The notes under the pieces: model-generated
What the model was told of the DNA's origin: nothing
Databases searched by the model: none
What the model saw: only the letters and a program-made list of their open reading frames with translations
Program-made: the position numbers and the translations under genes
Assembly (NCBI GenBank): GCA_040326155.1
Contig: JBEQLE010000039.1
Location: 1-39,700, forward strand
Source of the DNA: Leptospirales bacterium
GTDB lineage: Bacteria; Spirochaetota; Leptospiria; Turneriellales; JAOUFE01
Length of the DNA: 39,700 bases
Direction: 5' to 3'
In this document: positions 6,894 through 33,129 of the stretch, in pieces
Layout of the letters: each line of letters starts with the position of its first letter
How positions within the stretch are numbered: the first letter of the stretch is position 1

Positions 6894-6927
6894 ATTCCCG
6901 TATGCTAATGTGAATGCATACGGGAAT
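6894..6927 (-). terminator. Hairpin downstream of hcp
   Basis: 12-bp perfect stem ATTCCCGTATGC/GCATACGGGAAT about 20 nt past the hcp stop; U-tract is weak. Confidence 0.5.
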
Positions 6928-6946
6928 ACTATACTCACCCGATCGC

Positions 6947-8278: not shown

Positions 8279-8396
8279 TAGTTCTCCTTGTTGGTTAGTT
8301 AGCGTTTACTTACCTTTTCTTTTTCGAATGTACAGTCAATCAAAAAACATGGATTGAATTTCCAGGGACACCTTTGCTGACACTTACCAATCCCTC

Positions 8397-9218: not shown

Positions 9219-9423
9219 CCTTATGACCGGTTGAATTTTCTTTTTTATTATGATTTATATTAAGATCGCTACCACTAGACCTGGGGTGGGCTCCATTGAT
9301 AACATCTTGTATCTTGCGAAATGAATCGCTAAGACACTCACGACAGTACCCTTTCTGATAGATTTTTTCAACCATCTTATGGCACTTCTGACAAATGTGA
9401 AAATAGTGCTGCTTATCCATCAA
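9196..9423 (-). CDS. Small hypothetical protein with CxxC..CxxC zinc-binding motif
   Basis: CQKC and CREC; overlaps the kinase start, consistent with an operon. Confidence 0.6.
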   Translation of the reverse strand: MMDKQHYFHICQKCHKMVEKIYQKGYCRECLSDSFRKIQDVINGAHPRSSGSDLNINHNKKENSTGHKGETKSRL

Positions 9424-9463
9424 TTCGTAAATCCATCACACAAAACTCCTGCCTTATTAAGTT

Positions 9464-9617
9464 GCTAGTGCCGTGTCTTTTTAATTTGTTTCGCTAGCCG
9501 TCGGCTAGCCAACGGCTACCGCTTCACAAATTCAAGTGGGGACGCCACTTGAATTTGTGGCTGGATAGATGTTACATTAAAATAAGCTAATGCAACATCT
9601 ATCCAGCCACAGCACAG
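9464..9617. repeat. Palindromic MITE/REP-like element; related to 13891-13954
   Basis: Three stacked hairpins (9493-9509; 15-bp perfect stem 9525-9559; 24-bp stem 9556-9611) with imperfect terminal IR AGTGCCGTG/CACAGCAC. Confidence 0.7.
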
Positions 9618-9785
9618 TGTTAAAGCAAACGACAGCTTGTCAAAATAAAACGAAACGAAGGGTAAAAAAGTTTAAGGGTTATCCACACTGGTGGAGAGTT
9701 AGGCGAAATATAAAAATTTAAAATGAATTATGTCCCAATGGAAATAAAGTGCTTGCGTTCTACTACATTCTATTTACTTCTCATC

Positions 9786-10055
9786 ATGCCCGACAATGAC
9801 TATGAGAGCTGGTTACGCACTTCTCCGTTGGAATATAAAAAAGAGCTGTTAAAAACCTTTGTGGAACAAACAGTAGACTACGCTGAACAACATATCAAGC
9901 AAAGACAAGAGGAACTCTCCCTTGTTTCACAAGAAGACAAAGATGAAATTGCAAAACGGCAGGAACGACTGGCCAAATGGAACTCTTACATCGAGTTTCA
10001 AGACCATACGTTAGAGGAACTTAGTGGAGAGAAGCTGAATCGGTTCATTCCATAA
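9786..10055 (+). CDS. Hypothetical helical protein
   Basis: ORF 9723-10055; the charged helical sequence begins at MPDNDYESW, so ATG 9786 is preferred. Confidence 0.6.
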   Translation: MPDNDYESWLRTSPLEYKKELLKTFVEQTVDYAEQHIKQRQEELSLVSQEDKDEIAKRQERLAKWNSYIEFQDHTLEELSGEKLNRFIP

Positions 10056-10057
10056 TA

Positions 10058-10429
10058 TTATTTAAAATAAAATTTATTCATTTTACAATCAAACTGCAAC
10101 AAAGTCGCTTTTTTGCGAATTTCCTGATCAGATAACGGATTTTCTGCGTCTTTATAAACATAATCGTCTGTTTCTGGATACGATATCGCGTAAATCTTCG
10201 AAACACAAATATCAAATTCACTATATGCCAGTCCTAATATAGATATAATCTGAGTATGTCTTAAAACCCGGGTGGTAACCCCAATATAGACTTCGATAGA
10301 AGTCGTATCGCAACATTCGTTTGTAATAACGATATCCCAAAACTTGTCCGGGTATGTATAGACATGAATGGATACTAATGAATAAAATGTATCGAAATTG
10401 CTTAATAATGTAACATCAAACCCTGCTTC
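10058..10429 (-). pseudogene. 5'-truncated ORF remnant (123 open codons, no start)
   Basis: EAGFDVTLL...FDCKMNKFYFK* is open for 123 codons and breaks at the edge of the 193-bp duplicated segment. Confidence 0.6.
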
Positions 10430-10430
10430 A

Positions 10431-10623
10431 GGTTTTTCTCGTTTATCGCTCTTTTATAGTCCCCCTGTTTATGGCCGCCATTTTTTATATTTTATTTCGA
10501 AAATTATATTATTTCATATTAGACAAGCCAAAATTATCCCCGTGCCTTGCAGCGTCTATTACCGTTTTTACAATTCTCATTTTAATGGTTATACCCTTTG
10601 CGATTGTTGGTATAAACCTGACC
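10431..10623 (+). repeat. 193-bp direct-repeat copy of 14319-14511 (internal part of the AI-2E gene)
   Basis: Manual alignment: 180/193 identical, no indels. Confidence 0.95.
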
Positions 10624-10662
10624 GTATATTATAGATGACTCCAGTTTTCTTTAAAGTGGTGG

Positions 10663-10702
10663 AGCCGTACCGGAGCCAGACTTCTGTCGCCCCGGTACGG
10701 CT
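10663..10702 (-). terminator. Hairpin downstream of the CVNH gene
   Basis: 11-bp perfect stem AGCCGTACCGG/CCGGTACGGCT 12 nt after the stop. Confidence 0.55.
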
Positions 10703-10714
10703 AATTTTAACAAA

Positions 10715-11110
10715 TTATTTTTGTGCTAATTTTCCATTGTTATTTCCAATGCCATTTAATCGCAATGAAGCGGCAGCAAAAGTACCCTTTGCTGTCCTGC
10801 ATGATGCTACCAGGTTAACAGTTGATGTATTAACCACTACGATTTGTATATTCCCACAACTCTTCTGAAAACTACTGGCGCCACTACCCTGCACTAATTT
10901 TCCGTTCACATTGCTAATGCCCTGCAAAATCAAAGTTGACGGTTGCGCTGTTCCGTTTGCCTTCAAACATACAGCTTTCAAGGTTGGATCTTGCCCCTTA
11001 TACTCAAAGCCAATATTTGAACAAGTGTTCTGAAAACTTGAAGCTGCAAAAATTGTTCCTGTGACAAATACCAATGTCCCAACTACCGTTAAAATTAAAC
11101 TTTTTTTCAT
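10715..11110 (-). CDS. Secreted cyanovirin-N homology (CVNH) lectin
   Basis: Signal peptide plus two ~50-aa repeats: SSFQNTC..LKAVC..GISNVNGKL and SSFQKSC..LVASC..GIGNNNGKL. Confidence 0.88.
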   Translation of the reverse strand: MKKSLILTVVGTLVFVTGTIFAASSFQNTCSNIGFEYKGQDPTLKAVCLKANGTAQPSTLILQGISNVNGKLVQGSGASSFQKSCGNIQIVVVNTSTVNLVASCRTAKGTFAAASLRLNGIGNNNGKLAQK

Positions 11111-20399: not shown

Positions 20400-20547
20400 A
20401 AAAATAAAATTATGACAGACGAACCCGCCAAAGACTTCGAAGCGTAAAGGGACAACCTGTCGCCAAAAAAAGATAAAGTTTGCCAAGTAAATGAATTAAT
20501 GATTGCCGTGTAGTCATTAATATGTTAAATTATTACAAGGAGAGATC

Positions 20548-20838
20548 ATGATACGATCATTTAAAGACACCTTTACTGAAGACCTGTTTCATGGAATAGA
20601 TACTGCAAAAACCAGAAAGGTTCCGAGAAATATAAAGAGTGTTGCCGTAAGGAAAATGGACCAACTAGACGCCGCCATAGATATAAGCGATATGAAAGCT
20701 CCACCGGGAAATCGACTAGAAAAGCTAAAAGGAGATTTTAAGGAGTATTACAGTATTCGCATAAATGACCAATACCGGATAATATTTCAATGGAACAACA
20801 GCCAGGCGTCTAATGTATCAGTGACAGATTACCATTAA
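20548..20838 (+). CDS. higB: HigB toxin
   Basis: MIRSFKD..PPGNRLEKLKGD..YSIRINDQYRIIF..DYH. Confidence 0.93.
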   Translation: MIRSFKDTFTEDLFHGIDTAKTRKVPRNIKSVAVRKMDQLDAAIDISDMKAPPGNRLEKLKGDFKEYYSIRINDQYRIIFQWNNSQASNVSVTDYH

Positions 20839-20849
20839 GGAGGCATAAA

Positions 20850-21137
20850 ATGATACCAAAAAACAGAATACCAACCCACCCTGGAGAGATCTTGCTAAAA
20901 GACTTTTTAGAACCAATGAAAATTACACAAGTAAAACTGGCAAAGCACTTGAAAGTGTCGGTACAAAGAATAAATGAAATTGTTCGCGGAAAAAGAGGAA
21001 TTACCCCGGAAACAGCCTGGCTGTTTTCTAAAGCCTTTAATAATTCACCCGAATTCTGGATCAACCTACAGACAAACTACGATTTAGTAAACAGCAAACC
21101 AAACATTACTATAAAACCTCTGTTTGCGACAGGTTGA
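20850..21137 (+). CDS. higA: HigA antitoxin (HTH)
   Basis: PTHPGEIL..FLEP..RINEIVRGKRGITPETA..EFWINLQ..YDL. Confidence 0.95.
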   Translation: MIPKNRIPTHPGEILLKDFLEPMKITQVKLAKHLKVSVQRINEIVRGKRGITPETAWLFSKAFNNSPEFWINLQTNYDLVNSKPNITIKPLFATG

Positions 21138-21192
21138 ACAAAATGAAATCGGGGGGTAGCAGAGGCTCTTTTGGTTTTGCCAAAAAGCCGAT

Positions 21193-21268
21193 GCGAGGGG
21201 GCCGTGCTATTTACACAAAAAAACCGGAGGATTTTTTGTGTGCAACAAGATAGTCGCTTTGCCCCCTT
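21193..21268. repeat. Nested-hairpin element related to 4889-5041; may also terminate the convergent genes
   Basis: GCGAGGGGGCC..TATTTAC..TCG.TTTGCCCCCTT matches the reverse complement of 4889-4937; inner CAAAAAAACCGGAGGATTTTTTG matches 5017-5038. Confidence 0.7.
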
Positions 21269-21283
21269 CCAAAACAACAAACT

Positions 21284-21490
21284 TTATTTTACGTCGTCTT
21301 TATCTTCGTCTTCATCGCCACCGCAAAATTCCCGAATGGGAACTATGGCTTTGACCTCGACCGAGGAAGAAAGTTTTTCGTTCGTGTCCATTAAAGTAAC
21401 AGAATCAAGTGTACTGGCCTGAGCGTTTAATGTACCGAAAAAGAGAAAAGAAACCAAAAAAACAAAAGTTGCAAAAAGTATATTTTTCAT
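21284..21490 (-). CDS. Small exported hypothetical protein with acidic tail
   Basis: Signal peptide ending NAQA; SD GAGG upstream. Confidence 0.6.
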   Translation of the reverse strand: MKNILFATFVFLVSFLFFGTLNAQASTLDSVTLMDTNEKLSSSVEVKAIVPIREFCGGDEDEDKDDVK

Positions 21491-21566
21491 GTTTACCTCT
21501 TTGGAATATCGTTGTGCATTATTCCATTAGATTAATGTAATTCCGTAATACAAAAACGTCCAGAAA

Positions 21567-22721
21567 TTATTCATCGCGGTTGTCTGTATCTTTCCACCAA
21601 TGCTCCGTCGGCAGCGTCGAACTAAACGCGAAGGGAGCGCCGGCAATCGGGGTAGCGACTAAAACTTTTTTACCGGCAGCCTCTTTAACCAGGCGCTCAA
21701 TGGGTTCTGTCCAACTGTGCAAAGAAAGATTAAAAGTACCCCAATGAATTGGTAGCATAAGTTTTCCACGAAGGTCCATATGGGCGCGTATTGCTTGTTC
21801 GGGGTTCATGTGCAGATCGGGCCAGAAGCGACTATACTGGGCCATCTCTAAAATCGTCACATCGAAGGGGCCGTACTCTTTACCGATTTCGGCCAAACTC
21901 GCAGAGTAACCGGAGTCACCGCTGAAGAACACCTTCCGTTTTTTCGACCCCACCTTGCCTTCTATAACCCACGAAGCCCAGAGTGTTTTATCGCGATCAA
22001 AAAAACCACGACCGGAAAAATGTTGGGAGGGCGTAGCTCTAATTTTTAGTGCAGGTGAAATCTTCGCATCTTCATACCAATCCAGTTCGACAATTTTTGC
22101 AGGGTCTACGCCCCACTTTTCAAGGTAGGCCGCAACGCCGAGCGGGACTGCAAACTTCTTGACCTTTTTATGAATGGCCTTTATCGTTTTATAGTCTAAG
22201 TGGTCATAGTGATTATGAGAAATAATAACAAGATCGACTTCAGGCATATCGTTGCTCTCTAGTGGTAACATCGAATGAAACCGTTTTAAAGTAAATGGAG
22301 ATACAGGGCCGGGATTAAGATTAAACACAGGGTCGGTCAACACAATCAACTCACCAAATTCAATGAGTACAGACGAGTGGCCAAGCCATGTGAGCTTTAC
22401 ATCATTTTTGCTACTGTTTCCAATAGAAGCAGGGTCAAGTTTAACAACCGGTAGAGACTCGCTTGGAGTGCGAAGTTGTTTTCCGAACACGTACTCTTTG
22501 AACATCTCGATAAAAGACCCTTCCAACATCATTGCAGTCGGGACCTTATTTTGAAATTTACTGTTTTTATAGTTTGGCGATTGCATAATCCGTTGCATCC
22601 GGTTTCCTTTTAATGTAATCGAGTTTTGCGATAACCAGACGGAGCCTATAATCACTAAATAAAGCAGTAGAATTGCAACAACTATATAAAAAATCCTTTT
22701 TTTCATAACCATCTCATGCAA
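21567..22721 (-). CDS. MBL-fold metallo-hydrolase (RomA/NAPE-PLD-like)
   Basis: TWLGHSS, LTDPVF, ISHNHYDHLD, FFSGDSGY, PIHWGTF; the true start may be a few codons downstream. Confidence 0.92.
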   Translation of the reverse strand: MHEMVMKKRIFYIVVAILLLYLVIIGSVWLSQNSITLKGNRMQRIMQSPNYKNSKFQNKVPTAMMLEGSFIEMFKEYVFGKQLRTPSESLPVVKLDPASIGNSSKNDVKLTWLGHSSVLIEFGELIVLTDPVFNLNPGPVSPFTLKRFHSMLPLESNDMPEVDLVIISHNHYDHLDYKTIKAIHKKVKKFAVPLGVAAYLEKWGVDPAKIVELDWYEDAKISPALKIRATPSQHFSGRGFFDRDKTLWASWVIEGKVGSKKRKVFFSGDSGYSASLAEIGKEYGPFDVTILEMAQYSRFWPDLHMNPEQAIRAHMDLRGKLMLPIHWGTFNLSLHSWTEPIERLVKEAAGKKVLVATPIAGAPFAFSSTLPTEHWWKDTDNRDE

Positions 22722-22761
22722 TTAAGAATTACTAATTACGAATTATCAATTATCAATATTG
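22720..22761. repeat. Tandem heptamers AATTANN
   Basis: AATTAAG AATTACT AATTACG AATTATC AATTATC AATATTG. Confidence 0.7.
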
Positions 22762-22804
22762 CAAGGTCATTTAGTTCATTGAATATTATTTACCAGAAAT
22801 TCGT

Positions 22805-23058
22805 TTATGTATCAGGTCGGACAACAATTTTGTACTTCACTTAGTGCCAGTTATTCTTTGGTAAACATCCGCCCAAGGGGAACCTAATTCTGGATTCTGA
22901 TGAAAAGCCTCAAGTCTTTCATCAATGATTTTTTTCTCTTGTTCAGATAATTCAACATTTTCGGTTTTGTCTGATATCGTATCCCAAATATCTTATACCA
23001 ATTGAATTCTTTCTGGTATTGATAACTCAAGAGTATCTGTGGCTGTAATTCTTTTCAT
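22805..23058 (-). pseudogene. Inactivated addiction-module antitoxin plus 11-codon stump of a ParE-like toxin
   Basis: MKRITATDTLELSIPERIQLV*DIWDTI..ERL..GSPWADV..* with internal TAA at 22993-22995; overlapping GTG gives MKYKIVVRPDT*. Confidence 0.85.
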
Positions 23059-23171
23059 TATAAATTCTTAATATAACTATGCATATGTTTATTCAACATG
23101 TCAATAATTTATCGATATGAATGAAATTATGGACTGGGAATTTAGGGATATATCAAGCTTTTTTCGGAGTC

Positions 23172-23307
23172 ACGTTTCGCTTTTATCTGACGTTTTGGGG
23201 CTACTTGAGTCAGCCATGCGAGCACCAAACGAACCTCAAGTTTCGTGCGAGTCCGAGCGGACTAGTCGGAAAGTGATAAAGTTTGGTTGAGCTATTTGCG
23301 AAACCCG
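23172..23307 (-). repeat. 3' part of an attC-like repeat split by the IS110 element
   Basis: Reverse complement aligns with 25892-26025 (GGT.TCGCAAATA.CTC.ACCA and TTGGTGCTCGCA.GGCTGACT..AGCCCCAAAACGTCAGATAAAA). Confidence 0.85.
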
Positions 23308-23319
23308 TCTATGATGACG

Positions 23320-24435
23320 TCAAGCAGCTTTCAATTTTTCCACCAGTAGTTCCTGCCTTTTTAAGAATGATATGTATCGTTTCATTTTAAATTGGTGGTT
23401 TTTCTCGTCTACAAAATAATGATACTGTTTTTTCTTTAGCATCTGATAAATTTCTGTAAATACCTTTCGGCAGATAGCCATACGTAGTTTTCCCTTTCCT
23501 TTTGTGCCATCTTTCTTTGCGGACCAGGCTTTTAGTTTGGGGTTACTGGTTTTAAAGTGGGTTAATGCCTGGGTTAAAAAAGTCACCGCTAGTTTCCTGG
23601 ATTGCTTATTTGTCGATAAAATTCTTGTTGTCTCGTTAGAGCTATCAACTCCCGGTGCGCTTCTTAAATACGAACAAAGTTTTTTTGAATTCGGGAACCT
23701 GGAAATATCTCCTATGTCTGCGATCACGGCAAGGGCCGTGAATACACTGATTCCACGCATACTCGTTAGGATATCAACTTCTTCAATAAAGTTCGCCCCG
23801 AGTTTTTGAATCGCATCCTTACTCGCTTTAATTTGCTCCGACAAACTCAGGTAGGCTGCCAATAAAATATCTACTTGCAAATTAGCAGACTCAGAAAGTT
23901 TGATTCCTTTCAACCTCTTGATGCAAGGTTTGCTTAAACTGAGAGTTGCACTGAGTGTTTTGAGGTTTTGCCTGTAGAGAGAGCGGATGCGGTTTTTAAG
24001 GGAACCGCTTTGCTTTTTCAGAACTTTGTAAGTGGTAAAGAGTGAGCGCAAATCTCGTACGTTTTGGTCGGGAATGTAAACAGGATCGAAAAGGCTTTCA
24101 CCAGAAGTCACTTGCATTTTTAATATCACTGCAAGCTTTTCTGCATCGACTTTATCAGTTTTCTTTTTCACCATACTTATGAGTTTTAATTTATACGGAT
24201 TAGCCACGTATATTTCACAAACGTATGGTCGCACAATATCGCAAAAAGAAAACGTATTGGTAGATGCCTCAACCATCACATACGTGTTTTTGTCCAGGCA
24301 TTCAGCAAACTTCAAAACATCTTGCGGGTTATTCAGTGAAAATTTTTCTCTGTATTTTATTCCATCCGGACTTATCTTGCAAATGTTAAAAGCGTTGCTG
24401 TGTAAATCTACTCCAATGAATTGTAAATTTTCCAT
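23320..24435 (-). CDS. IS110 family transposase/recombinase
   Basis: DEDD RuvC-like N-terminus (IGVDLH, VEAS, KTDKVDA) and Transposase_20 domain (LTSMRGIS..IGDISRF..APGVDSS); SD AAGGAG. Confidence 0.95.
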   Translation of the reverse strand: MENLQFIGVDLHSNAFNICKISPDGIKYREKFSLNNPQDVLKFAECLDKNTYVMVEASTNTFSFCDIVRPYVCEIYVANPYKLKLISMVKKKTDKVDAEKLAVILKMQVTSGESLFDPVYIPDQNVRDLRSLFTTYKVLKKQSGSLKNRIRSLYRQNLKTLSATLSLSKPCIKRLKGIKLSESANLQVDILLAAYLSLSEQIKASKDAIQKLGANFIEEVDILTSMRGISVFTALAVIADIGDISRFPNSKKLCSYLRSAPGVDSSNETTRILSTNKQSRKLAVTFLTQALTHFKTSNPKLKAWSAKKDGTKGKGKLRMAICRKVFTEIYQMLKKKQYHYFVDEKNHQFKMKRYISFLKRQELLVEKLKAA

Positions 24436-24475
24436 TTTGATTCTCCTTTACGGGAACAGGTTAATGAGTCTATTT

Positions 24476-24625
24476 ACCAAACGTCTATTCGGGGAATCAG
24501 GTGCAGGTTATAAAACTTGCACCTCCCCATTATTCCAATTCGGTTAATGGCCGCCAATCGAAGGCACGGGCTCACGAGGTCCCAGGGTTTCGCACGGCCA
24601 TTACATGGATATTACCCATACAAAA
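24476..24625 (-). ncRNA. Predicted IS110 bridge RNA (5' hairpin, target-binding loop, donor-binding loop)
   Basis: 9-bp stem 24545-24553/24595-24603 encloses guides matching both target flanks; a second stem-loop (24476-24544) carries a 7-nt match to the donor junction. Ends are approximate. Confidence 0.8.
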
Positions 24626-24696
24626 TTAACCATTCACCGTTTTATAATATTCTCTTTTAAAAATACAAAGGAATACTACTATGGTCATCATAGAAT

Positions 24697-24744
24697 CGAA
24701 GGCCCGTCCAGGGCGCGAGTAGATAAAATTTATTAGCTGAAATT
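24697..24744 (-). repeat. 5' part of the split attC-like repeat
   Basis: Reverse complement AATTTCAGCTAATAAATTTTATCTACTCGCGCCCTGGACGGGCCTTC aligns with AACTTCAGCTAACAAATTTTATCTGTTCGCGCCCTGTTCGGGCACTC at 25845. Confidence 0.85.
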
Positions 24745-24788
24745 GATAGGTTTTAATTCCTTCTATCGTATATAGATTTTTGTTTAAA

Positions 24789-25760
24789 CTATTCTTCCAA
24801 ATCCTCCGAGTCAATATGTTCGAAAAAGTATTTTCCTTCTATTGACTTATGACAAATTATCTGATTGTCTATCTGGAATGTTATATTGAGAGTATTATAT
24901 CTTTCGAATATTTCCAATGCACGTTCAGCCAATTCCAAAGAATCCTTTTGTAGTCGAATTTGTGTATCACCTTCTAATGCTTCTCTCTCAGCTTTGATTT
25001 TAGCCCTTTTTTCCTTTAAAAGCTCAGTTTCTTCAATCTTATGCTTTGTTTCTTCCTGCTTATATTCGTTTTCTAATTTTTTCGCTTTCCAATTAAGAGG
25101 GAAATAGATTATACTTTCTAACAGTTTCACGATTCCTTCTGCACTCAATGAAATAAATTGATCAAGAGAACCTTTACCAGTATCTACTAGATCTATTTTT
25201 TCTACCTTTGTTATGGCTTTCACTAATCGAAAAAATTCTACAGAAAACTCTAATGCCTTTAAATAATCATCTTTTTCATAACTAATTTTAATACCTAAAA
25301 TTTGGTTTGTTCGAGCATAACCATAAATTGGTTTTTGAATTATATTATGTGTTAAGGAATCGACAGAATTAATTAACTTCCCTCTAAAATCTAATCCCCC
25401 ATTTTCATTATAGTTTACGTAGTGAACCCAAGGAAATTCTCGAAAAGTATTTTCATCATCCTTTTCAATAGCGATAATTGCCTTATTTTGTCCAATGCCT
25501 AGACCCGCTTCAAAAGCTATACTAGGGATATTATTATTTAATACTATAATAATTAAATTACAATCCCTAATACTTCTTATTATTTGATCACTGATTATAT
25601 CTCCGAATTTCTCTTTTTCTATTTCTCCAGTTATAATTACTCCATTATCAACTAAAATAGGTTTTACTATATTATCAACGAACTCTATGTCTTCGCGGGA
25701 ATAGGTTATGTGACACTTTAACGTGAACTTTATTTGAAACTTCTCTAATGTTGCGATCAT
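24789..25760 (-). CDS. TIR-like/nucleoside 2-deoxyribosyltransferase-like domain fused to a coiled-coil C-terminus; candidate defence protein
   Basis: CHITYSRED..ISDQIIRSIRDCNLIIIVL..PSIAFEAGLGIGQNKAIIAI; C-terminus rich in E/K heptads; very AT-rich gene. Confidence 0.7.
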   Translation of the reverse strand: MIATLEKFQIKFTLKCHITYSREDIEFVDNIVKPILVDNGVIITGEIEKEKFGDIISDQIIRSIRDCNLIIIVLNNNIPSIAFEAGLGIGQNKAIIAIEKDDENTFREFPWVHYVNYNENGGLDFRGKLINSVDSLTHNIIQKPIYGYARTNQILGIKISYEKDDYLKALEFSVEFFRLVKAITKVEKIDLVDTGKGSLDQFISLSAEGIVKLLESIIYFPLNWKAKKLENEYKQEETKHKIEETELLKEKRAKIKAEREALEGDTQIRLQKDSLELAERALEIFERYNTLNITFQIDNQIICHKSIEGKYFFEHIDSEDLEE

Positions 25761-25847
25761 GGTTTATTTATGCACGTAATGGACACCTTGTCAATATTTT
25801 ATTATTAGAATCATCACTATTGTTTCGGTTGATTATTCTGTATCAAC

Positions 25848-26037
25848 TTCAGCTAACAAATTTTATCTGTTCGCGCCCTGTTCGGGCACTCAGGTCTCGC
25901 AAATAACTCGACCACATTTTGGGGCTTCCTCCGTTTAACCGCCCTGATACCACAAATTATGGAGGTTAATTGGTGCTCGCAGGGCTGACTACGAAAGCCC
26001 CAAAACGTCAGATAAAATTGAAGCGTTGTGTACTGAA
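25848..26037 (+). repeat. Intact attC-like long palindromic repeat (~190 bp)
   Basis: GCTAAC..AATTTTATCTG (25859-69) pairs with CAGATAAAATT (26009-19)..GTTGTGT; inner TTTTGGGGCTT/AAGCCCCAAAA; outer TTCAG/CTGAA. Confidence 0.75.
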
Positions 26038-26189
26038 AACACTACCAACCTCAAACATAAATTTGGCATGGACGCCAAATTTATTATAAACAATTATTAA
26101 GTAGTAAGACATCATCTTTTACACATTTGAATCAGGTGTCTACCCATTATGTTACTTGGTGGTACTGCTACATTCTCATGCTCCTTGCA

Positions 26190-29165
26190 TTATCGATCAA
26201 TACGAACACGCAGTCGCCTTGCTCGCTCTCGAAATGCAGTCTCACCTCCTTCCAAGATGTCACATACAGCTTTTCGAATTGATGCGTTTTCTAGTCCACC
26301 GGCCCGGTAACTGATCGGGGGAAGACCACCTACATGATGCGGCCCAGCTTCAGCAATAATAATCTGATCAGCATCTGTGTTAATAACTAAATTAGCATTA
26401 TGAGTAACCATAATTACTTGACGCTTAGCTTTTGCAGCAATAAATAATGGCACAAGTTCTTCATTTACAGAATTAGGGTCTAAATTTTCTTCTGGCTGAT
26501 CTATAATCAATGGTCGATCGTCAGACTCATCCAAAGCAAGGTATAGTAGTAAAAGAACGATACCACGTGTTCCTGGAGAAAGTTTTCGAATATCAATTCC
26601 ATCGTATAGTATTTCATATTGAACCAATATATGATCAGTACCATATAACCAATGCGCAAATTGTTTCAACCACATTCTGTAATCAGCTTGTTGCGATGGG
26701 GAATAAGGAGCATGTTTGAACAAATCTTTCTGGTAAATGGCGATGAACTTGCTAATGGTATCTTGAATTTCTGACGCGGAACCTGTCTCCCATATTTGTT
26801 TAAGCATCTTTTCAGCAACCTCAGTCAAAGTTCCACGACCGTTGAATGGACCAGCCTTTCGGAGATCAAGAAGGTTTAACTCAGCAAAATTACCCCATTC
26901 ATTAACATCAACTATTCGGCGAACGTTAAAGCTGAGCTTACTTAATGTACCAGAGGTTGCTGAGAGTCGTTTCATTAACGGGTCATAAAGTTCAGCAAGA
27001 GTCGCCTGTTCTTTGATGATCGCCTCAAATATCCGTCTGTAGACATCTTCACGCTCGGACTGCAACGCCTTCCTACGATCGTTGGCACCCAATGCATCAG
27101 CTAGTTTCTCTTTAAAATTATTTAAGGCTGAATTCTCTTGTTCTATTCGTTTGGTCAGTGCACTGTATTGATCGCGAACCAACTTGTCCGCGCTGAACAA
27201 CGCTTCTAACCTCGTCATTTCAGCGATAATGATTGATAAATTTAACGTATTGAGATCAACATCATCAGATATTAATGGAGTGTTCGGATCCGCCGCTTGA
27301 ATCGGTGGGCCGTTAAGCTTTGCAACATTCTTATTAGCCCAATCAACATAACCACTGAGGCTTTTATCTACATCACCTTTATAGATAAGCAGGAATTCGG
27401 CCCATTGATCAGCGTCAAGGCCACTCTGGTTGTGTCGTTCTTGCGCTTGGCGAAGCAACTCAGGGCACTTTGTTGCACGTGTGCTAGCCACCTCATCCTG
27501 CAATGTAATGAAAGAACGATGTTGGTTCATAAAATTGCCGATTTTACTTCTTAGAGATTGGGCAGCCTCTGTAAGTTGCTCGTGCCGTTGAACCTGTGCT
27601 TGTGTACCCTTTACAGCAAGTTTTGCAAGGTCCGCACTATAGTCTCGGATCAATTTTTCTTTCTGTTCAACTTGCTTAGAAAGTGTTGCAATTGATCTCT
27701 CTTTCTCGAATTCAATAGCAATACGGTCAGAAATATCAGAGAGTGCACTTTCTTCACGTTCACGAGCCTGCTTAAATCGCAGAGTGCGCTGTTCTCGGAA
27801 TTCAGAGAAATTTATGGCACCCTCACGCTCATCCATCTGATGTGCTTCAAGGATGACTCTTTCGATTTCTTCAATGAGACCATCTGAAATACCATTTGAC
27901 GAGCAAAGCTCTTCAACAAATTGCTGGGATAGATATCTGGCACGGGGAAATGAAAGATGACTGTTCTCATCTTGACCAGCGAGTGATCGTTTTGACTCAT
28001 CACCGCCACACCAAGAGAGTGTGATAAATGCATTGCCAACAACAGGCCTCGCGCGGGCCAAAAAGGATGGACTGTTCCCTTCATTTGTGGTCCAAGTCGA
28101 ATTTGAAATGGAGTCACAACCCGCGGCAACCATATCTGCGAGAGCTGTTTTTCCAGATCCCCTGGCACCTATGATTGCAATTAAGCCAGGATTGAAAGGG
28201 ATTTCAGGAGTTTTGGCCCAACTTGCATTCGCTATTGATATGTGCGAAATAACTTGAGATTGCGTTGCGGAGAGAGGTGGTTCCGAACCTACGAATGCCC
28301 GTCCTTCTGGGTCGATACATGCTTGCCGCAAAGCATCAAATTCCAAACCACCCTTGATCCAACAAAATCGGTTCTCGATGGGCTTTCCGACTGTATTTAG
28401 TTCGTGCGCATCACTACCGTGAAGACAGGGCTTGGGGCCATTATAGCGTTCGCGCAATGAATCGATTTCAACGCTACGCTGCCCAAGCCAGAATTCCCTT
28501 TGGGCTGGGCTGCTCGCAAAAATGATGTGAGCAAACTTCTCAATTTCTTGACGTATAGTAGCGTCAGCTGCCTGGCGTACACCTGAAGTACCATCGCCTT
28601 CTGCTCCGGCAACTGCAATGAGGATGTTATTTTTCGCCCATTGACTATCCTGATATACATCACGCAACTGCTTAAAGTTGACTTTGAATTGGGTGGACCC
28701 ATGCTGTAGAGCGGTGCGGTTGTTAGTAATTTTGGAGTCTGCTTGCTTCCCAAGTCTTATTAGTTCTTTTCGCGTACAATCAAAACAATCGCCATATGCT
28801 TGAAATTGTAATCGCCCCAAAATTCTTTGAAGTTCATCTACGTGTTCGGGATCTTCGGGGCTAACCAACAGGTGGATATTAACGAAGCCAGTTTTTGCCG
28901 CTACATCTAATCGAAGTTCGACATTAGGGAATACTAACTGAACGTCAGGAAGGCGGCCGTCATCCATATGTTTCAGTACCTTTTCGTATGTGTCAGTAAT
29001 GTAATATTCAGTAACAGCAACAGCCTCGATTTTTGGAACAGCACCTTCAATAGCGGTGAAGTATTTATCCCAAGGATCATCACCATCAAACTGATTGTTG
29101 AGTGTTGTGCCGGGAGCATGAACATGGGGCTCCCAGCGTTTCCATTGTGAACCTCGGTTTAGCAT
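26190..29165 (-). CDS. PHP-domain + SMC/ABC-type ATPase (TrlF/Ppl-like)
   Basis: RGSQWKRWEPHVHAP, NVELR, HGSDAH (PHP); GARGSGKT, coiled coil, LSPGTRG, PLIIDQPEENLD, VTHN. Start at MLNRG is chosen for SD AAGGAG (ORF track start 29192). Confidence 0.88.
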   Translation of the reverse strand: MLNRGSQWKRWEPHVHAPGTTLNNQFDGDDPWDKYFTAIEGAVPKIEAVAVTEYYITDTYEKVLKHMDDGRLPDVQLVFPNVELRLDVAAKTGFVNIHLLVSPEDPEHVDELQRILGRLQFQAYGDCFDCTRKELIRLGKQADSKITNNRTALQHGSTQFKVNFKQLRDVYQDSQWAKNNILIAVAGAEGDGTSGVRQAADATIRQEIEKFAHIIFASSPAQREFWLGQRSVEIDSLRERYNGPKPCLHGSDAHELNTVGKPIENRFCWIKGGLEFDALRQACIDPEGRAFVGSEPPLSATQSQVISHISIANASWAKTPEIPFNPGLIAIIGARGSGKTALADMVAAGCDSISNSTWTTNEGNSPSFLARARPVVGNAFITLSWCGGDESKRSLAGQDENSHLSFPRARYLSQQFVEELCSSNGISDGLIEEIERVILEAHQMDEREGAINFSEFREQRTLRFKQAREREESALSDISDRIAIEFEKERSIATLSKQVEQKEKLIRDYSADLAKLAVKGTQAQVQRHEQLTEAAQSLRSKIGNFMNQHRSFITLQDEVASTRATKCPELLRQAQERHNQSGLDADQWAEFLLIYKGDVDKSLSGYVDWANKNVAKLNGPPIQAADPNTPLISDDVDLNTLNLSIIIAEMTRLEALFSADKLVRDQYSALTKRIEQENSALNNFKEKLADALGANDRRKALQSEREDVYRRIFEAIIKEQATLAELYDPLMKRLSATSGTLSKLSFNVRRIVDVNEWGNFAELNLLDLRKAGPFNGRGTLTEVAEKMLKQIWETGSASEIQDTISKFIAIYQKDLFKHAPYSPSQQADYRMWLKQFAHWLYGTDHILVQYEILYDGIDIRKLSPGTRGIVLLLLYLALDESDDRPLIIDQPEENLDPNSVNEELVPLFIAAKAKRQVIMVTHNANLVINTDADQIIIAEAGPHHVGGLPPISYRAGGLENASIRKAVCDILEGGETAFRERARRLRVRIDR

Positions 29166-29268
29166 TCTTTCTCCTTTGTCTAATGATGTCATTTCGTTTC
29201 AAATTCAATATAAAACATATTAATATTTAGTATCTGAAATATTCTGGAATAATCAATAATGTACAGTA

Positions 29269-29296
29269 ATTTTAAATTATTTAAGCGCATTGTCAA
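29269..29296 (-). promoter_or_regulatory. Sigma70-like promoter for the PHP-ATPase gene
   Basis: TTGACA-16 bp-TAAAAT on the minus strand. Confidence 0.55.
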
Positions 29297-29360
29297 CATC
29301 TATCTTTTTTCTTGCGAGCCCAGGACGGGCGAGCCTTTCGAATCTCTGCGTTTATTGCAT

Positions 29361-29377
29361 TAACAAATTTTATCTGT
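29361..29377 (+). repeat. Truncated start of the attC-like repeat
   Basis: TAACAAATTTTATCTGT is identical to 25854-25870; a related GCCCAGGACGGGC hairpin lies at 29318-29330. Confidence 0.6.
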
Positions 29378-29404
29378 ATTGTGACATTGGACCTGATGGT
29401 CCAT

Positions 29405-30922
29405 TCATAATTCTGTTTCATTTCTAATCAAAAGTATATTTCTCGTTCCCAGTATTAACAAAAACTTGTTCTCAGGAGACCATACCGGAGGATGAACTCC
29501 CATACCTTTGTAGGAGGTGCCAAAGTGCCAATAAGGCAAATCTAAAATTTTAGTCTGGGTACCCGCTTTCACATCTGCAATAAATAACTCAGGTGGCTTC
29601 ATGTTGCCGGGTTCTGTATTCATCGCAGTGAAATATGCAATCTTGTTCTGATCTGAGCTTACTTTAAAATACCTCCCTTTAACAAGTGTTGTAGGTTTTA
29701 TTTCCCCTGTTCGCAAAGTAAGTTCTAGAACATCGGTTCCACTTGGAAACGCAAGTAGAGCAGTTTTATTATTTAGCTGTTGAAAATCAGCAGGAAAGAC
29801 CCAGTTCTCTCTTTTCTTTTTCCACACGATTTTCTTTTTTACTACATCAAAAAGAATCATCCATGAATCACCCGATTTCATTGTAATTCCTGCCAGGAAT
29901 TTTTTTCCATCTTCAAGCCAACCTATGGGAGACTGGTTTTCTTCGAAATAATCGGGAAAATATTTTTCCATATTAAAATGTTCTCCGAAAGTCAATACTG
30001 CATCATTTTTTATATCATAAATTTCCATTGAATTTGTTGACTCATCTCCATATTGAAACACAATATAATTCTTTTTGGGTGACAGCTGGCCTTGCCAGGA
30101 AGAAAACATTGGCGCCCCTTTCTTTTCGACTCCGGTTTTTAAGTCATATCTGAGAATGGGATACACAGTGCCCTCCCATGAATGTGCTTGAAGATACACA
30201 GCCAGATTTTCTGATACAATAACGAAACTTCCATGACGAAAGTTGTTTGTTGAAAAAGTTTTGTTCATTATATTACGCGATTTACGGCTCTTCGTATTAA
30301 GTAAAAATGTGGCTTTATCCGTAGAATAAAGTAGTTCGCCTGACGGTAAAAATCCGAGTATATTTCCGAACCACATATTTTCATGTGTAATTGGTTTTTC
30401 CAGCGAATTCAGTTTAACTATGGCAAAGTGATTTATGCTTTGTATAGCCAGGGTTTTCCCTGTTGGGGAAAACAGTGCAAACACCGAAGTCCATGGCGCA
30501 TTACTCACGGCGCTCTCCGGGTATGCATTAATAATAAATGCTTTTGAACTGATGCTTTTAAGTGTATAGGGTACAGGTAAATCGACAAGGTAGGCAGAAA
30601 ATACCCAGCCTTTATCTTTTTTATTATTTAGTTTTGCTACACGATACCAGTAACCAGTTTTTTCTTGGATGGTAATCTGTTCCTTCGTTTCTTCCAGCAC
30701 TACTACTTTTTCACCTTGCATTATCTTACTATTTGCAGGCGAATGGAGTGAAGCGTTTCGGCGTAAATTTAAATATCCATCTGTAATATTACAGATCATT
30801 ACTTTGTTATGCACTTTATGACTTTGTGCATAAATTAATCTGGTACAATTTTGCACTAGAACAGTCAGGACTAAAACTAGAATAATATTCTTTCGCATAT
30901 TTAACAATAATATTAAATTCAT
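29405..30922 (-). CDS. Exported SH3b-domain protein with TolB-like beta-propeller
   Basis: LNLRR..GEKV.V..GYWYRV..GWVFSAYL (SH3b); FSPTGK, LSPKKNYI, VSSDQNKIAY, WSPENK repeats. Confidence 0.8.
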   Translation of the reverse strand: MNLILLLNMRKNIILVLVLTVLVQNCTRLIYAQSHKVHNKVMICNITDGYLNLRRNASLHSPANSKIMQGEKVVVLEETKEQITIQEKTGYWYRVAKLNNKKDKGWVFSAYLVDLPVPYTLKSISSKAFIINAYPESAVSNAPWTSVFALFSPTGKTLAIQSINHFAIVKLNSLEKPITHENMWFGNILGFLPSGELLYSTDKATFLLNTKSRKSRNIMNKTFSTNNFRHGSFVIVSENLAVYLQAHSWEGTVYPILRYDLKTGVEKKGAPMFSSWQGQLSPKKNYIVFQYGDESTNSMEIYDIKNDAVLTFGEHFNMEKYFPDYFEENQSPIGWLEDGKKFLAGITMKSGDSWMILFDVVKKKIVWKKKRENWVFPADFQQLNNKTALLAFPSGTDVLELTLRTGEIKPTTLVKGRYFKVSSDQNKIAYFTAMNTEPGNMKPPELFIADVKAGTQTKILDLPYWHFGTSYKGMGVHPPVWSPENKFLLILGTRNILLIRNETEL

Positions 30923-31131
30923 AATGGCGATGCGTCAATAACTTTTATCGACTCAGACGTAACCGCATGGGCCAGTTTCCTTGTTTTTACTGGCATTTTA
31001 TAAAGCCATATTGTTGAAATATCGATAGACTTATTTTTGACACAATTAGAATAGATATAAATCATTATCCGACCCTGGTGAAAAGTCGACCTTACTGCTA
31101 GAACGGACTCGGGCGATTCAACACGAATCTA

Positions 31132-32385
31132 CTACCTGGGTAAGGCAAACAAATACTTTACGATATCGTTTGAGGAACTACTGTTATAGATTGCCAGCAC
31201 TCCGTCAAAGGCTGCCCAGTCTACGTTGTCATTGGGAATTACAAAATGCAGGGAGGTGCCGGTGGTTGGCCACTTGACTCCATCGAGGTCGGTAAGGGTT
31301 GTTTTGTCATAAATATTTTCTGTAGTAATACTGCCAGCAGTGACGGCCAGTTCAGTCAATGAATTACCACTTGAGGCGAAAACGACTCGATACGTTGACG
31401 TCCCATTATTCCATTTTATGGCTGGTTCAGACTCACGCTCCATGGCCGAGTCGACAGCTTGTTGCAAAGTGACACTGTTCGTAGCGGGGTCGATTAAAAA
31501 GACTTGTGTTTTACTGTTTTTCTTTACAAAAACAATAAATCGATTTATAGAAGTTAACCATTTACAGTTATAGTAATATTGACTGATGTTATCTAGTAAG
31601 TGAATTTTCGGGCTCAATGCGATTGTGCCACTATCGGTTAAAATATTTGCAAAGAAAGAGTACCCGTCTCCATAAACTAAAATGGCCCGGTTGTTATCAT
31701 CCGATGCAAGAACCGGCCACCAGTGATCTAAATTTACACCTGTGACAGGTAACGTTTGTAATAAGACGCCATTGACGTCAATGTACTTTACCATCACTCT
31801 GGCATACTTTGCCGGAGCAGCCTCGTCCGCATAGGCCAAAAGGAACCCCCCTGCTAAGGTTGTTACGCTGGCTGAATGTTGTGAACCGCTCGCATTGGTT
31901 ATGTTCCAGTTGTTTTTAAGTATCGTTCCATTTGAGTTATATAAAATACCATGCACATCTATGCTGCTTCCGCTTCCATCTTCCCACCCTGAAAACAAAA
32001 CAGTCCCGGAGCGAGTTGTACTTACGGGTTCTTGCGCCTCGTCTTGCCCATTGCCTACGAAGCGATAGGCCGCTACAACTTCAACAAATGATTTATCCTG
32101 GTTTATGGAAATAATGGTTCTATAAATATCGTGTTCCCAACCATTCTTGTAAGCGCTCGACCATGTTAATTGGTATTGTTGATTTCCTGAATCTAGAATT
32201 TGTGCGCTGTGATTAAATTCACGATCATCTTGCGTAGAAGAGCTTCCCTTCGAGGAATTGTCGTTTTGACAACTCATCGTTATAAAAATAATAAAAAATA
32301 AATAACCACTCTTTGTCGAAATATATTTGCACATATTTTTTAACATACCACCGAATATATACTTTTTTGGAATAAATTTCAACAT
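31132..32385 (-). CDS. Putative lipoprotein, beta-rich, unknown function
   Basis: FFIIFITMSC lipobox-like segment then an S/T linker; start codon uncertain. Confidence 0.7.
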   Translation of the reverse strand: MLKFIPKKYIFGGMLKNMCKYISTKSGYLFFIIFITMSCQNDNSSKGSSSTQDDREFNHSAQILDSGNQQYQLTWSSAYKNGWEHDIYRTIISINQDKSFVEVVAAYRFVGNGQDEAQEPVSTTRSGTVLFSGWEDGSGSSIDVHGILYNSNGTILKNNWNITNASGSQHSASVTTLAGGFLLAYADEAAPAKYARVMVKYIDVNGVLLQTLPVTGVNLDHWWPVLASDDNNRAILVYGDGYSFFANILTDSGTIALSPKIHLLDNISQYYYNCKWLTSINRFIVFVKKNSKTQVFLIDPATNSVTLQQAVDSAMERESEPAIKWNNGTSTYRVVFASSGNSLTELAVTAGSITTENIYDKTTLTDLDGVKWPTTGTSLHFVIPNDNVDWAAFDGVLAIYNSSSSNDIVKYLFALPR

Positions 32386-32487
32386 TAGTTAAGACGATCT
32401 TCTTCTCATTTCCATATTTTGCCCCCTTCTTGCTGTTTTGATTATTTTTTTTACTGGTCATTTTGTGTCAAAATTCCACTATTTTGC

Positions 32488-33129
32488 ATGAGATTTAAAC
32501 TTTCCAAAAGCAGAGTATTCGTTGGTTTTATTTTATCATGCGCATTTTTTACAACGATTGCGGCAGTTGAAAAGAAAACTCCCGATTATTCGAATTATCC
32601 CAAAGACACTAAGGACGTTAAAAACCCGGTAGACACGAAAGATCCTGTGGTGAAAAATCCAGATGTTAGAAAAGTCGCCGAAAAGGTTATCATTCGCAGC
32701 ATTGTTACGTTAGGCTCTCGCGATGTTCTCGAAGGTTCTATTATATTGCCCAAAGAGTTTACTTTTCAACATTATAAAAATGGTCTTACCTATACAAAAA
32801 AAGTTCAAGCGAAAGAGCTGAAATCGGTTAAAATAAGCGCTTATGAGCTACGAAAAAAAGTGGCGACAAATAACGGAACTTTTTATGAGTTTGAACCCTC
32901 TGAAATATTGGTCACTCTGCATGATAAAACTGTTTTTCATCTAGACACGATATTTCCGTTTTTGCGAAGTTTTCAGTTTAAAAGTCAATATGGGGTAACT
33001 AGATTATATACTTATTTTGGAGACACGTTTACAAATTCCGGCTGGACTCATGTGAAGAGTAAAGATCTTGATTACCATTTGAAAATTGGACACCCGGCTG
33101 CGGTGCAAACAATTACATTTATGAAGTAG
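32488..33129 (+). CDS. Exported hypothetical protein
   Basis: ORF 32419-33129; ATG 32488 gives a signal peptide (MRFKLSKSRVFVGFIL..IAA). Confidence 0.65.
   Translation: MRFKLSKSRVFVGFILSCAFFTTIAAVEKKTPDYSNYPKDTKDVKNPVDTKDPVVKNPDVRKVAEKVIIRSIVTLGSRDVLEGSIILPKEFTFQHYKNGLTYTKKVQAKELKSVKISAYELRKKVATNNGTFYEFEPSEILVTLHDKTVFHLDTIFPFLRSFQFKSQYGVTRLYTYFGDTFTNSGWTHVKSKDLDYHLKIGHPAAVQTITFMK

Follow-up and report, generated by a model that had tools for sequence, protein, structure and literature searches.

What kind of element is the long repeat that brackets candidate defence genes in the genome of a spirochaete? The stretch in which the question arose, called the window here, spans positions 1 to 39,700 of contig JBEQLE010000039.1 from a Leptospirales bacterium of the order Turneriellales (GenBank assembly GCA_040326155.1). 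It is contig C104 of a 4.26-Mb assembly with 171 contigs and 39.6% G+C. A first-pass annotation of its letters had noticed repeats that resemble attC, the recombination site of integrons, and had proposed a dispersed cassette system that is mobilised in trans and parasitised by an RNA-guided insertion sequence (IS). Following up on this proposal, we consider it likely that the repeats are attC analogues, belonging to an integron-like gene-cassette system that is native to this order of spirochaetes. The following sections describe the repeat family, its fold, the ends of the segments between repeats, the recombinase of this genome and its relatives, before alternative explanations are weighed and the window is revisited.

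A repeat family dispersed through the genome

The repeat occurs in the window at the following positions, where R and L denote the attC-like boxes and S the bottom strand that is predicted to fold:

23172..23307, minus (top strand minus; folding S strand plus): R'-side part of copy 1; nhmmer positions 50-186, E 2e-27
24697..24748, minus: R''/L''-side part of copy 1; nhmmer positions 2-55
25845..26028, plus (top strand plus; S strand minus): copy 2, an attC-like site in intact form; nhmmer positions 1-189, E 4e-52
29361..29377, plus: stump, the R''-L'' head of a site only; exact 17-mer copy of 25854-25870

The three copies of one family described in the first-pass annotation are thus present, with coordinates and caveats that proved right to within a few bases. 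Read directly, copy 2 carries TAAC at 25854-25857 and GTT at 26025-26027. Copy 1 lies 1.1 kb away in the opposite orientation and is related to copy 2 by three inverted-repeat arms, 23172-23228 (57 nt, 84%), 23278-23305 (28 nt, 82%) and 24702-24748 (47 nt, 87%), the last of which is complementary to 25841-25887 of copy 2. A direct reading of the junctions agrees with the earlier description of copy 1 as split by an IS and degenerate at its ends, which read AAT and, on the R' side, GTG. The TIR-like gene said to stop just before copy 1 does so at close spacing, at a distance of about 40 nt and not 44, and the stump lies 27 nt from the stop of the gene at 29405-30922. None of the four tyrosine-recombinase genes of the genome falls inside the 39.7-kb window, in line with the remark that no integrase is in view. 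[quoted passage not shown]

The annotation had also suggested looking for the repeat genome-wide, and the family found in this way is far above chance. Copy 2 as a blastn query returned 49 high-scoring segment pairs across the genome, and three rounds of iterated nhmmer gave 46, 86 and 83 hits, which merge into 79 loci on 51 contigs; 4 of these loci fall within an open reading frame (ORF) of at least 120 aa. Twenty-five copies are full-length and measure 156-289 nt; the variation among them comes from some deletions and from two optional inserts, one of about 70 nt. Where neighbouring sites are less than 6 kb apart, 18 of the 20 adjacent pairs share one orientation (the IS-split copy 1 counts as one of the 18), and the two exceptions are a pair on C106 and, in the window, copies 1 and 2. 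Sites also form small arrays, each with 2-5 members spaced by 1.5-3.8 kb, on C16, C106, C14, C140, C7, C41, C161 and C32. The array on C106 is the only one in the assembly seen beside any recombinase gene, which we take to be a coincidence. When the longest ORF of each segment is considered in eight arrays, 21 of 38 have no Pfam hit, and the remaining ones include two OLD/GajA-like ATPases, PIN_12, SocA/Panacea, HNH, a TetR with a hydrolase and an extracellular contractile injection system (eCIS) core protein. As judged by these assignments, the cassette content is integron-like.

A conserved fold on one strand

As single-stranded DNA, the minus strand of copy 2 is predicted to fold with -41.1 kcal/mol (z -5.85) and the plus strand with -32.9 kcal/mol (z -3.72). 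The fold was examined across 19 of the 25 full-length copies in S-strand orientation, with six deletion variants omitted and copy 2 as the first row (alignment A1); the structure combines helices from RNAalifold with an outer stem added by hand. This outer stem is made up of the R box (TAAC/GTTA), a spacer in which GTTTC stays unpaired across from one T, and an L box of 11 bp (AATTTTATCTG / CAGAT-n-AAAATT). In 17 of the 19 copies the L box has one bulged base, which lies on the S strand's 3' arm and varies between C, T and G. In canonical attC the choice of strand is set by extrahelical bases on the '' arm, a role for which the bulged base is a candidate, though one of varying identity. The stem encloses three elements: a long hairpin, the helix with the optional insert, and a GC hairpin. 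In these inner parts the sites are mosaics: helix 8 holds the insert of about 70 nt, and the loop of the long hairpin accommodates the second, which measures 25-55 nt (alignment A1 columns 83-134 and 196-262), and some loci duplicate the segment at nhmmer positions 54-105; one mosaic example is L013:1594-1914.

The alignment retains this structure to a degree that shuffled alignments do not reach. Among the 19 copies 91.0% of the cells in paired columns are paired, compared with a shuffled mean of 83.7%, and 30 of the 54 pairs changed on both sides in a compensatory manner. None of 500 shuffles attains any of five measures, and sliding the partners by 1-3 columns leaves a pairing of 30-44%. 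Pairing reaches 88% of cells in the R helix and 91% in the L helices, and the fold is strand-biased. A conserved G.T pair, the third pair of the long hairpin, is present in 17 of the 19 copies and recurs in the sites of the relative G012 (ACGTCGATGG ... CCATCGATGT). The R'' (..AAC) and R' (GTT..) boxes and the L'' and L' boxes of the repeat therefore pair in the folded single strand as those of attC do, and the attC-like layout proposed from the window, with AAC...GTT ends and inner inverted boxes, holds across the family, extended by a strand-specific conserved fold and by the cassette-specific complementarity of R' and R'' described below. Canonical attC sites are about 57-141 nt long and form a simple hairpin; the full copies here, with the length given above and three inner hairpins, do not, as the annotation had cautioned with regard to length.

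The segment between sites as the likely unit

Does the repeat move by itself, or is the unit the segment between two repeats? To compare the two, the nine bases outside AAC (R'' side, top strand) were taken as the head of a site and the nine bases outside GTT (R' side) as its tail; heads could be located at 64 and tails at 33 of the 79 loci. The ends that flank one segment, namely the tail of site n-1 and the head of site n, are complementary at 5.10 of nine positions on average (10 pairs). The own ends of a single site reach 2.92 of nine (24 pairs, with a few heads mislocated), and all tail-head combinations 3.38 of nine. When the heads were shuffled among the ten pairs, the observed sum was reached in 0.19% of 20,000 trials (p ~0.002). 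Complementary ends of this kind are seen on C7 (GTCAAATGAAAT and ACTTCATTTAAC) and on C16 (GTTAGCCGAAAT and ACTTCGGCTAAC). This complementarity across segments is the classical footprint of integron cassettes. In such a system, the bases past G|TT would be part of the next cassette and would pair with that cassette's own site in the circular form.

An IntI-related recombinase without the I2 domain

A search for an IntI-like tyrosine recombinase, advised in the first-pass annotation, yielded one intact IntI-related gene. The four tyrosine-recombinase genes of the genome lie on C106, C83, C141 and C12. The gene on C106 is XerD (356 bits, cut-off 329.6), and those on C83 and C141 score best as XerC/XerD. 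The gene on C12 (8247-9305, minus strand, 352 aa, intact) scores 206 bits as XerA, 184 bits as XerC and 182 bits with the integron integrase model TIGR02249 (cut-off 265). None of the four recombinases reaches the TIGR02249 cut-off, and all of them lack profile positions ~186-237. In a comparison with VchIntIA (2a3v), residues 84-266 of the C12 protein align with 11-190 and residues 280-352 with 245-317, and 13 residues stand where IntI4 has 54; the gap corresponds to the IntI-specific (I2) domain. The C-terminus ..VKSPL is aligned to ..VLSPL of IntI4. Pfam recognises the SAM-like and catalytic domains and no domain in residues 1-79, and the catalytic residues are invariant in 11 orthologs. 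The gene is preceded, about 150 nt upstream, by ..AAGTGTTATCGGCAATAAACGCAGAGATT.. and then by a promoter-like hexamer, TTGACG.

The kinship of the C12 protein was further explored with a quick tree of 57 rows: the 50 of 91 fetched loci that a motif filter let through, four manually added orthologs, and three Xer proteins of this genome. Here, the XerC/D proteins (8 rows, support 98) are set apart from a 49-row clade (support 98), in which the I2-bearing canonical IntI proteins (13 rows, support 100) are found together with I2-less proteins that have the SPL tail; the 11 recombinases of the order form one group with support 96. On the basis of these comparisons, the C12 recombinase is related to IntI, without the I2 domain and with an extra N-terminal stretch of about 80 aa.

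Cassette arrays headed by the recombinase in relatives

An ortholog of the C12 recombinase, one per genome, is encoded in 20 of 34 genomes of the order (E <=1e-40). Five of these, G000 (this genome), G002, G003, G020 and G029, have a contig that breaks off no more than about 0.6 kb upstream of the recombinase gene, as repeats would lead it to do. Where the assembly continues, arrays come into view. In G012, 19 sites of ~250 nt, all in the same orientation and spaced by 690-1250 nt, occupy the 18 kb upstream of the recombinase. The longest ORF reads away from the recombinase in 17 of the 19 inter-site segments, which makes the folding strand the non-coding strand. About 170 nt before the start codon stands an attI-like junction, ..ATGGCCGACAAC|GTTTATTCC.. 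(also given as ..GCCGACAAC|GTTTATTCC), where the conserved 12-mer is retained up to AAC and the sequence then diverges from the site consensus, as it does at a junction between attI and a cassette. The same layout and end architecture are seen in G018, G028 and G013, the last from another family of the order, with the arrays directly upstream of and divergent from the recombinase gene. Four relatives thus have a cassette array beside the integrase-like gene with an attI-like junction, and G019 has a few repeats near its recombinase.

The arrays can be large. In G018, site matches extend from 3,472,187 to 3,642,579 on its contig C1, over ~170 kb, upstream of the recombinase gene at 3,455,169-3,456,026; the underlying BLAST search scored 23 of 212 first-look candidates. 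At C3:97020-152979 and 3737976-3804594, G021 harbours two large groups of sites, both remote from its recombinase gene. BLAST with one G012 site as query finds matches in family f6 only; the query does not cross families, and even G000 gives no match. Within f6, 11 genomes have both recombinase and sites and 5 have neither; 2 carry the recombinase alone, and 2 others, which are 83% and 77% complete, carry the sites alone. These counts stand without a statistical test as the genomes are kin and not independent.

Related loci also appear outside the order. A profile search with the recombinase alignment gave, among the matches listed, proteins of other phyla and none from the order itself. In a metagenome-assembled genome (MAG) of Firmicutes (L054, PGZN01000027.1, 229-4733), five sites of 360-390 nt with GCCTAAC...GTTAGGC ends are placed ~1.0-1.1 kb apart upstream of an I2-less recombinase of 290 aa. 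Firmicutes were without complete integrons in the survey results given by Cury et al. (PMC4889954). In many MAGs of other phyla (L051-L053, L075, L076, L082 and others), the contig ends a few hundred bases upstream of an I2-less recombinase, which would fit repeat arrays that break the assembly. Repeats at an Oceanirhabdus locus (L067) were considered as sites and set aside, as they look like duplicated coding DNA.

How cassettes may move

From these observations a mechanism can be proposed by analogy with integrons. The S (bottom) strand would fold such that the outer R/L stem closes a junction of three hairpins, and the recombinase encoded at C12:8247-9305 would be the likely catalyst, acting in trans. 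The folded strand would be cut at TAA|C, corresponding to G|TT on the top strand, and a cassette would start at TT.. and extend to the G of its own site. Of the dispersed system with an integrase elsewhere that the first-pass annotation envisaged, the dispersal is borne out by the 79 loci and the integrase by the intact C12 ortholog of an array-heading recombinase; mobilisation in trans, as well as single-strand recombination, the position of the cut and mobility at the present day, we infer from the likeness to integrons.

Weighing the explanations

Several points speak against the repeats being attC analogues. The evidence consists of genome sequences, one per species, and these showed neither a recombination event nor a circular cassette or a polymorphism between strains. 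The C12-type recombinase has no I2 helix, an element called essential for attC recombination in statements of two papers (PMC7790495, PMC8138268), the second of which also describes, in a passage on an 'integron-like' subgroup of tyrosine recombinases, the I2 insertion as 'not fully conserved'. Contig C12 ends 256 nt upstream of the recombinase gene, so that no adjoining array is visible here; its end shares 69 nt with the start of C1, where there is no array, and in a contig-end overlap graph (k = 31) the only join is C101-C58. The recombinase of G021 has no array within 20 kb, though arrays are found elsewhere in that genome. The sites are longer than any canonical attC and have a lopsided spacer, 5 nt versus 1 nt. 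With respect to strand, 64 G.T cells against 28 A.C cells on the S strand (47 against 28 without the one conserved pair) form a count that is biased in favour of that strand because the structure was derived on it. Within the window, the tail of copy 2 and the head of the stump are complementary at 1 of nine positions only; the segment between them, which holds a Ppl-like ATPase gene, is for this reason not a clean cassette, and together with the degenerate ends of copy 1 this gives the cluster the look of a rearranged and decaying one rather than of a working array.

Wide dispersal weighs in the same direction, since 79 loci, 58 of them on contigs of at least 12 kb, are equally expected of an element similar to repetitive extragenic palindromes (REP), bacterial interspersed mosaic elements (BIME) or miniature inverted-repeat transposable elements (MITE). 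Such a selfish or host-domesticated repeat would spread by itself through intergenic DNA, and its likeness to attC and its arrays would be secondary. The mosaic build with optional inserts and internal duplications fits this explanation, as does the random orientation of the gene upstream of a site in this genome (34 sense, 30 antisense), and IS110-family elements are known to target REP sequences. MITEs, however, are recognised by terminal inverted repeats together with target-site duplications, and none of 19 copies has a terminal direct repeat of at least 3 nt, a result which together with the end complementarity speaks against a MITE. The own ends of the element match worse than the ends that flank a segment, 18 of 20 adjacent pairs are co-oriented, the units are far longer than REP/BIME palindromes of ~35 nt, and four relatives have single-ORF arrays of homologous sites headed by a conserved recombinase. 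REP/BIME come with a RAYT transposase in the genome; no RAYT-type or other transposase was found with the family, though no search aimed at one was made. We regard a self-spreading repeat as unlikely. A still smaller share of our belief goes to the idea that the sites serve the housekeeping XerC/XerD recombinases as folded mimics of dif, in the manner of integrative mobile elements exploiting Xer (IMEX) or of pdif modules. It draws on C106, where 1.1 kb separate a bona fide XerD gene from an array of three sites (C106:4906-5805; 6926-10864), and on an R box, ..CGCATAA.., which we take to resemble the XerC arm of dif. This is the one array near XerD, though, and the adjacency conserved in four relatives involves the C12-type gene and not XerC/XerD, as does the co-occurrence with sites in family f6. 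Least credible of all, and in our view highly improbable, is a structured RNA, be it a stabiliser in a 3' untranslated region, a terminator or another non-coding RNA, in which the covariation would stem from RNA folding. The strong covariation, the stable fold and the position of the sites between genes are what such an RNA would display; yet no Rfam family matches the window at the gathering threshold and copy 2 has only chance-level hits at E up to 10, the longest ORF runs antisense to the folding strand in 17 of the 19 G012 cassettes, the sites keep no consistent orientation to flanking genes in this genome, and the complementarity of ends across segments is left without account.

An insertion sequence that appears programmed for the site

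The attC-like site is itself the target of another mobile element, which splits copy 1:

23308..24696, minus: IS110-family insertion sequence, 1389 bp, inserted at ..GCGAAACC-CG-AAGGC.., with CG on both sides
23320-24435, minus: transposase gene of the IS, Pfam DEDD_Tnp_IS110 and Transposase_20

Both domains score above their cut-offs (PF01548 47.3 bits, PF02371 47.9 bits), which places the element in the IS110 family. Its non-coding region, 5' of the transposase gene, spans 24436-24696. The decamer TGCGAAACCC occurs twice in the window only, in the left flank of the IS at 23297-23306 (plus) and in its 5' region at 24585-24594 (minus), where 0.1 occurrences are expected. Similarly, CGAAGGC at 24559-24565 equals the core and right flank at 24697-24703. 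Bridge RNAs of IS110 elements pair through their loops with target and donor, and they arrange their target guides across one internal loop. In the RNA fold predicted for the 5' region (-79.9 kcal/mol, z -3.76), the 10-nt and the 7-nt segment face each other across an internal loop closed by a 9-bp stem. The matches to both flanks within one predicted loop agree with the suggestion of an RNA-guided IS that parasitises the site, and the guide RNA, as modelled, appears to be programmed for the site in copy 1. All three IS110-family transposase genes of the genome lie at most 600 nt from a site, the other two at C161:704-1162 and C100:34646-35080.

Elements that target structured repeats include the IS1111-attC group and IS621 with its bridge RNA. 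Like IS110/IS1111 elements on such repeats, the element here has a DEDD transposase, no long terminal inverted repeats, the 2-nt core CG on both sides, a single defined place in a recombination site, and guide-like segments in its non-coding end that match both flanks. Unlike the IS1111 type, it has its long non-coding region 5' of the transposase gene, the IS110-type arrangement. It also differs from the IS1111-attC group in its target, which is the GC-hairpin side of a non-canonical site, and no Rfam family was matched.

The island and its genes

The sites of the window are part of an accessory island. In the relative G002 (L134), the genes that flank the island are contiguous in the order g17280, ComEC, p236, MtnA, p547, with ComEC directly before the homologue of window 32419-33129; for this reason window 20400-32418 is taken as a 12-kb insertion. 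Its left edge carries a HigB/HigA pair at 20548-21137, the island also includes a gene with a metallo-beta-lactamase fold, and two further genes follow beyond the stump. Between and beside the sites lie the following features:

22812..23171, minus: toxin-antitoxin (TA)-type cassette remnant, after the R' end of copy 1
24789..25760, minus: 323-aa gene with a weak TIR/nucleoside-deoxyribosyltransferase (NDT)-like signal, between two R'' heads
26190..29192, minus: candidate anti-phage gene for a Ppl-like ATPase of 1000 aa, lying antisense to the top strand of copy 2
29290..29357, minus: leader and promoter module (AATAAACGCAGAGATT, small GC hairpin, TTGACA), before the Ppl-like gene and beside the stump

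The TA remnant, in which no intact ORF is left, is 97% identical to C101:42488-42656 and 93% to C58:2084-2307; these two contigs overlap by 31 nt, and the remnant is a paralogue of a fuller C101/C58 copy. Homology between the window and C58 ends no more than about 2 nt from the predicted cut, but C58 has a short site-like motif 25 nt beyond, and the pair was set aside as not being clean evidence. For the 323-aa gene, Pfam gives Nuc_deoxyrib_tr at E 4.9e-4, below the cut-off, and PADLOC gives no match; structural neighbours in the Atlas are TIR_2, NDT and SIR2_2 clusters with TM scores of at most 0.44, for a model with a pLDDT of 0.58. The Ppl-like gene, described earlier as a PHP-ATPase gene in antisense orientation with its own promoter, retains the ATPase (Pfam SMC_N, AAA_21, AAA_23), the orientation and the promoter, and it matches the PADLOC model Ppl with 119.7 bits (E 2.9e-35, best stretch residues 847-994); its N-terminal PHP domain could not be confirmed, as Pfam reports none at E <=0.01. 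The AATAAACGCAGAGATT module with its small covarying hairpin has related copies at C12:9450-9540, C91:2212, C99:5890, C112:7307 and C127:38167 in a motif scan, and the window leader shares an exact 18-nt match with the region upstream of the C12 recombinase gene. The module is placed at the head of several gene segments as well as immediately before the C12 recombinase gene, and it probably serves cassettes as a portable promoter.

The top strand of copy 1 runs leftward, through the TIR/NDT-like gene, the site and the TA remnant, and that of copy 2 rightward, through the site, the antisense Ppl gene and the stump; with these opposite directions the two R'' heads face each other. Under the attC-analogue explanation, the window would hold a satellite, CALIN-like cluster of a non-canonical integron in a 12-kb island, with two arrays placed head to head. 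One would comprise the TIR/NDT-like gene, copy 1 and the TA remnant, the other copy 2, the antisense Ppl-like gene with its own promoter and the stump. The cluster would be in decay, with copy 1 degenerate at its ends and split by the IS110-family element.

Relation to known systems

Integrons are defined in the account of Cury et al. (2016, PMC4889954), as far as its definitions are cited here, by IntI with a C-terminal specific domain and by attC sites, and the same account links CALIN with IS and reports a neighbouring IS for 38% of them. Among spirochaetes, Treponema was called the only clade with integrons in a statement from 2013 (PMC3607928), and a Spirochaetes attC model with a consensus length of 98 is given in a 2021 paper (PMC8352920), each taken here for that statement. 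A literature search gave no description of such arrays in Leptospira- or Turneriella-type spirochaetes.

The closest likeness of the arrays in relatives is to sedentary chromosomal integrons such as the Vibrio superintegron. Shared features are a recombinase divergent from mostly single-ORF cassettes, an attI-like junction, AAC...GTT ends with R and L boxes, a bulged base, a variable central part, a bottom strand that folds, a cassette start complementary to the R'' of its own site, a high likeness of sites within one genome, and many ORFans, TA genes and defence genes. In contrast to sedentary integrons, the recombinase has no I2 or additional domain and carries an N-terminal extension that lacks a Pfam domain. 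The sites depart from canonical attC in length (176-289 nt here, ~250 nt in G012, 360-390 nt in one Firmicutes MAG), in the three hairpins within the outer stem, in a spacer of 5 nt versus 1-3 nt, and in a bulged base whose identity is not fixed. As in CALIN, at least two sites lie away from the integrase gene, with an IS nearby and the integrase elsewhere in the genome; unlike in CALIN, the sites are non-canonical and the satellite loci are very many (79). Similarly, rAID-1 of Bacteroidales combines a XerD-family recombinase with arrays of accessory (immunity) genes and integron-like intergenic repeats, according to the description by Ross et al. (2019, 10.1101/471110). The two systems share accessory gene arrays headed by a tyrosine recombinase and intergenic repeats that recall integrons. 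In rAID-1, as described there, the recombinase is co-directional and 5' of the genes, and the phylum is another one. This likeness is drawn from the description and not from kinship of the recombinases, and the long branched fold and the dispersal are features of the system considered here.

Implications

A wider interpretation is that these recombinases stand for a second integron lineage, present in this order and represented by related recombinases in candidate-phyla bacteria, DPANN archaea, Firmicutes and Bacteroidota; we see the arguments for and against such a lineage as evenly matched. The same even odds apply to the further picture that its long, branched single-strand sites are recombined without I2 and that its cassettes sit at dozens of chromosomal places, where they are hunted by a programmable IS110 element.

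The contribution of the window itself is the satellite cluster, the defence genes and the guided IS. It shows that the sites are also present in ordinary chromosomal islands, as numerous satellite clusters that carry defence genes with their own promoters. Its IS110 element, apparently programmed against the site, would be a case from nature in which a guided IS preys on a different recombination system. If the wider interpretation is true, tools keyed to I2 and to short attC sites would be blind to a large cassette reservoir, and large stores of cassettes would be left unannotated, such as those implied by the long run of site matches upstream of the G018 recombinase. A full integron layout without I2 and with sites of 180-390 nt bears on the origin of single-strand recombination because, in the argument of a 2020 eLife paper as it is cited here (PMC7790495), that origin is tied to the acquisition of I2. 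Single-strand cassette capture would then be older than the I2 domain, or it would have arisen twice.

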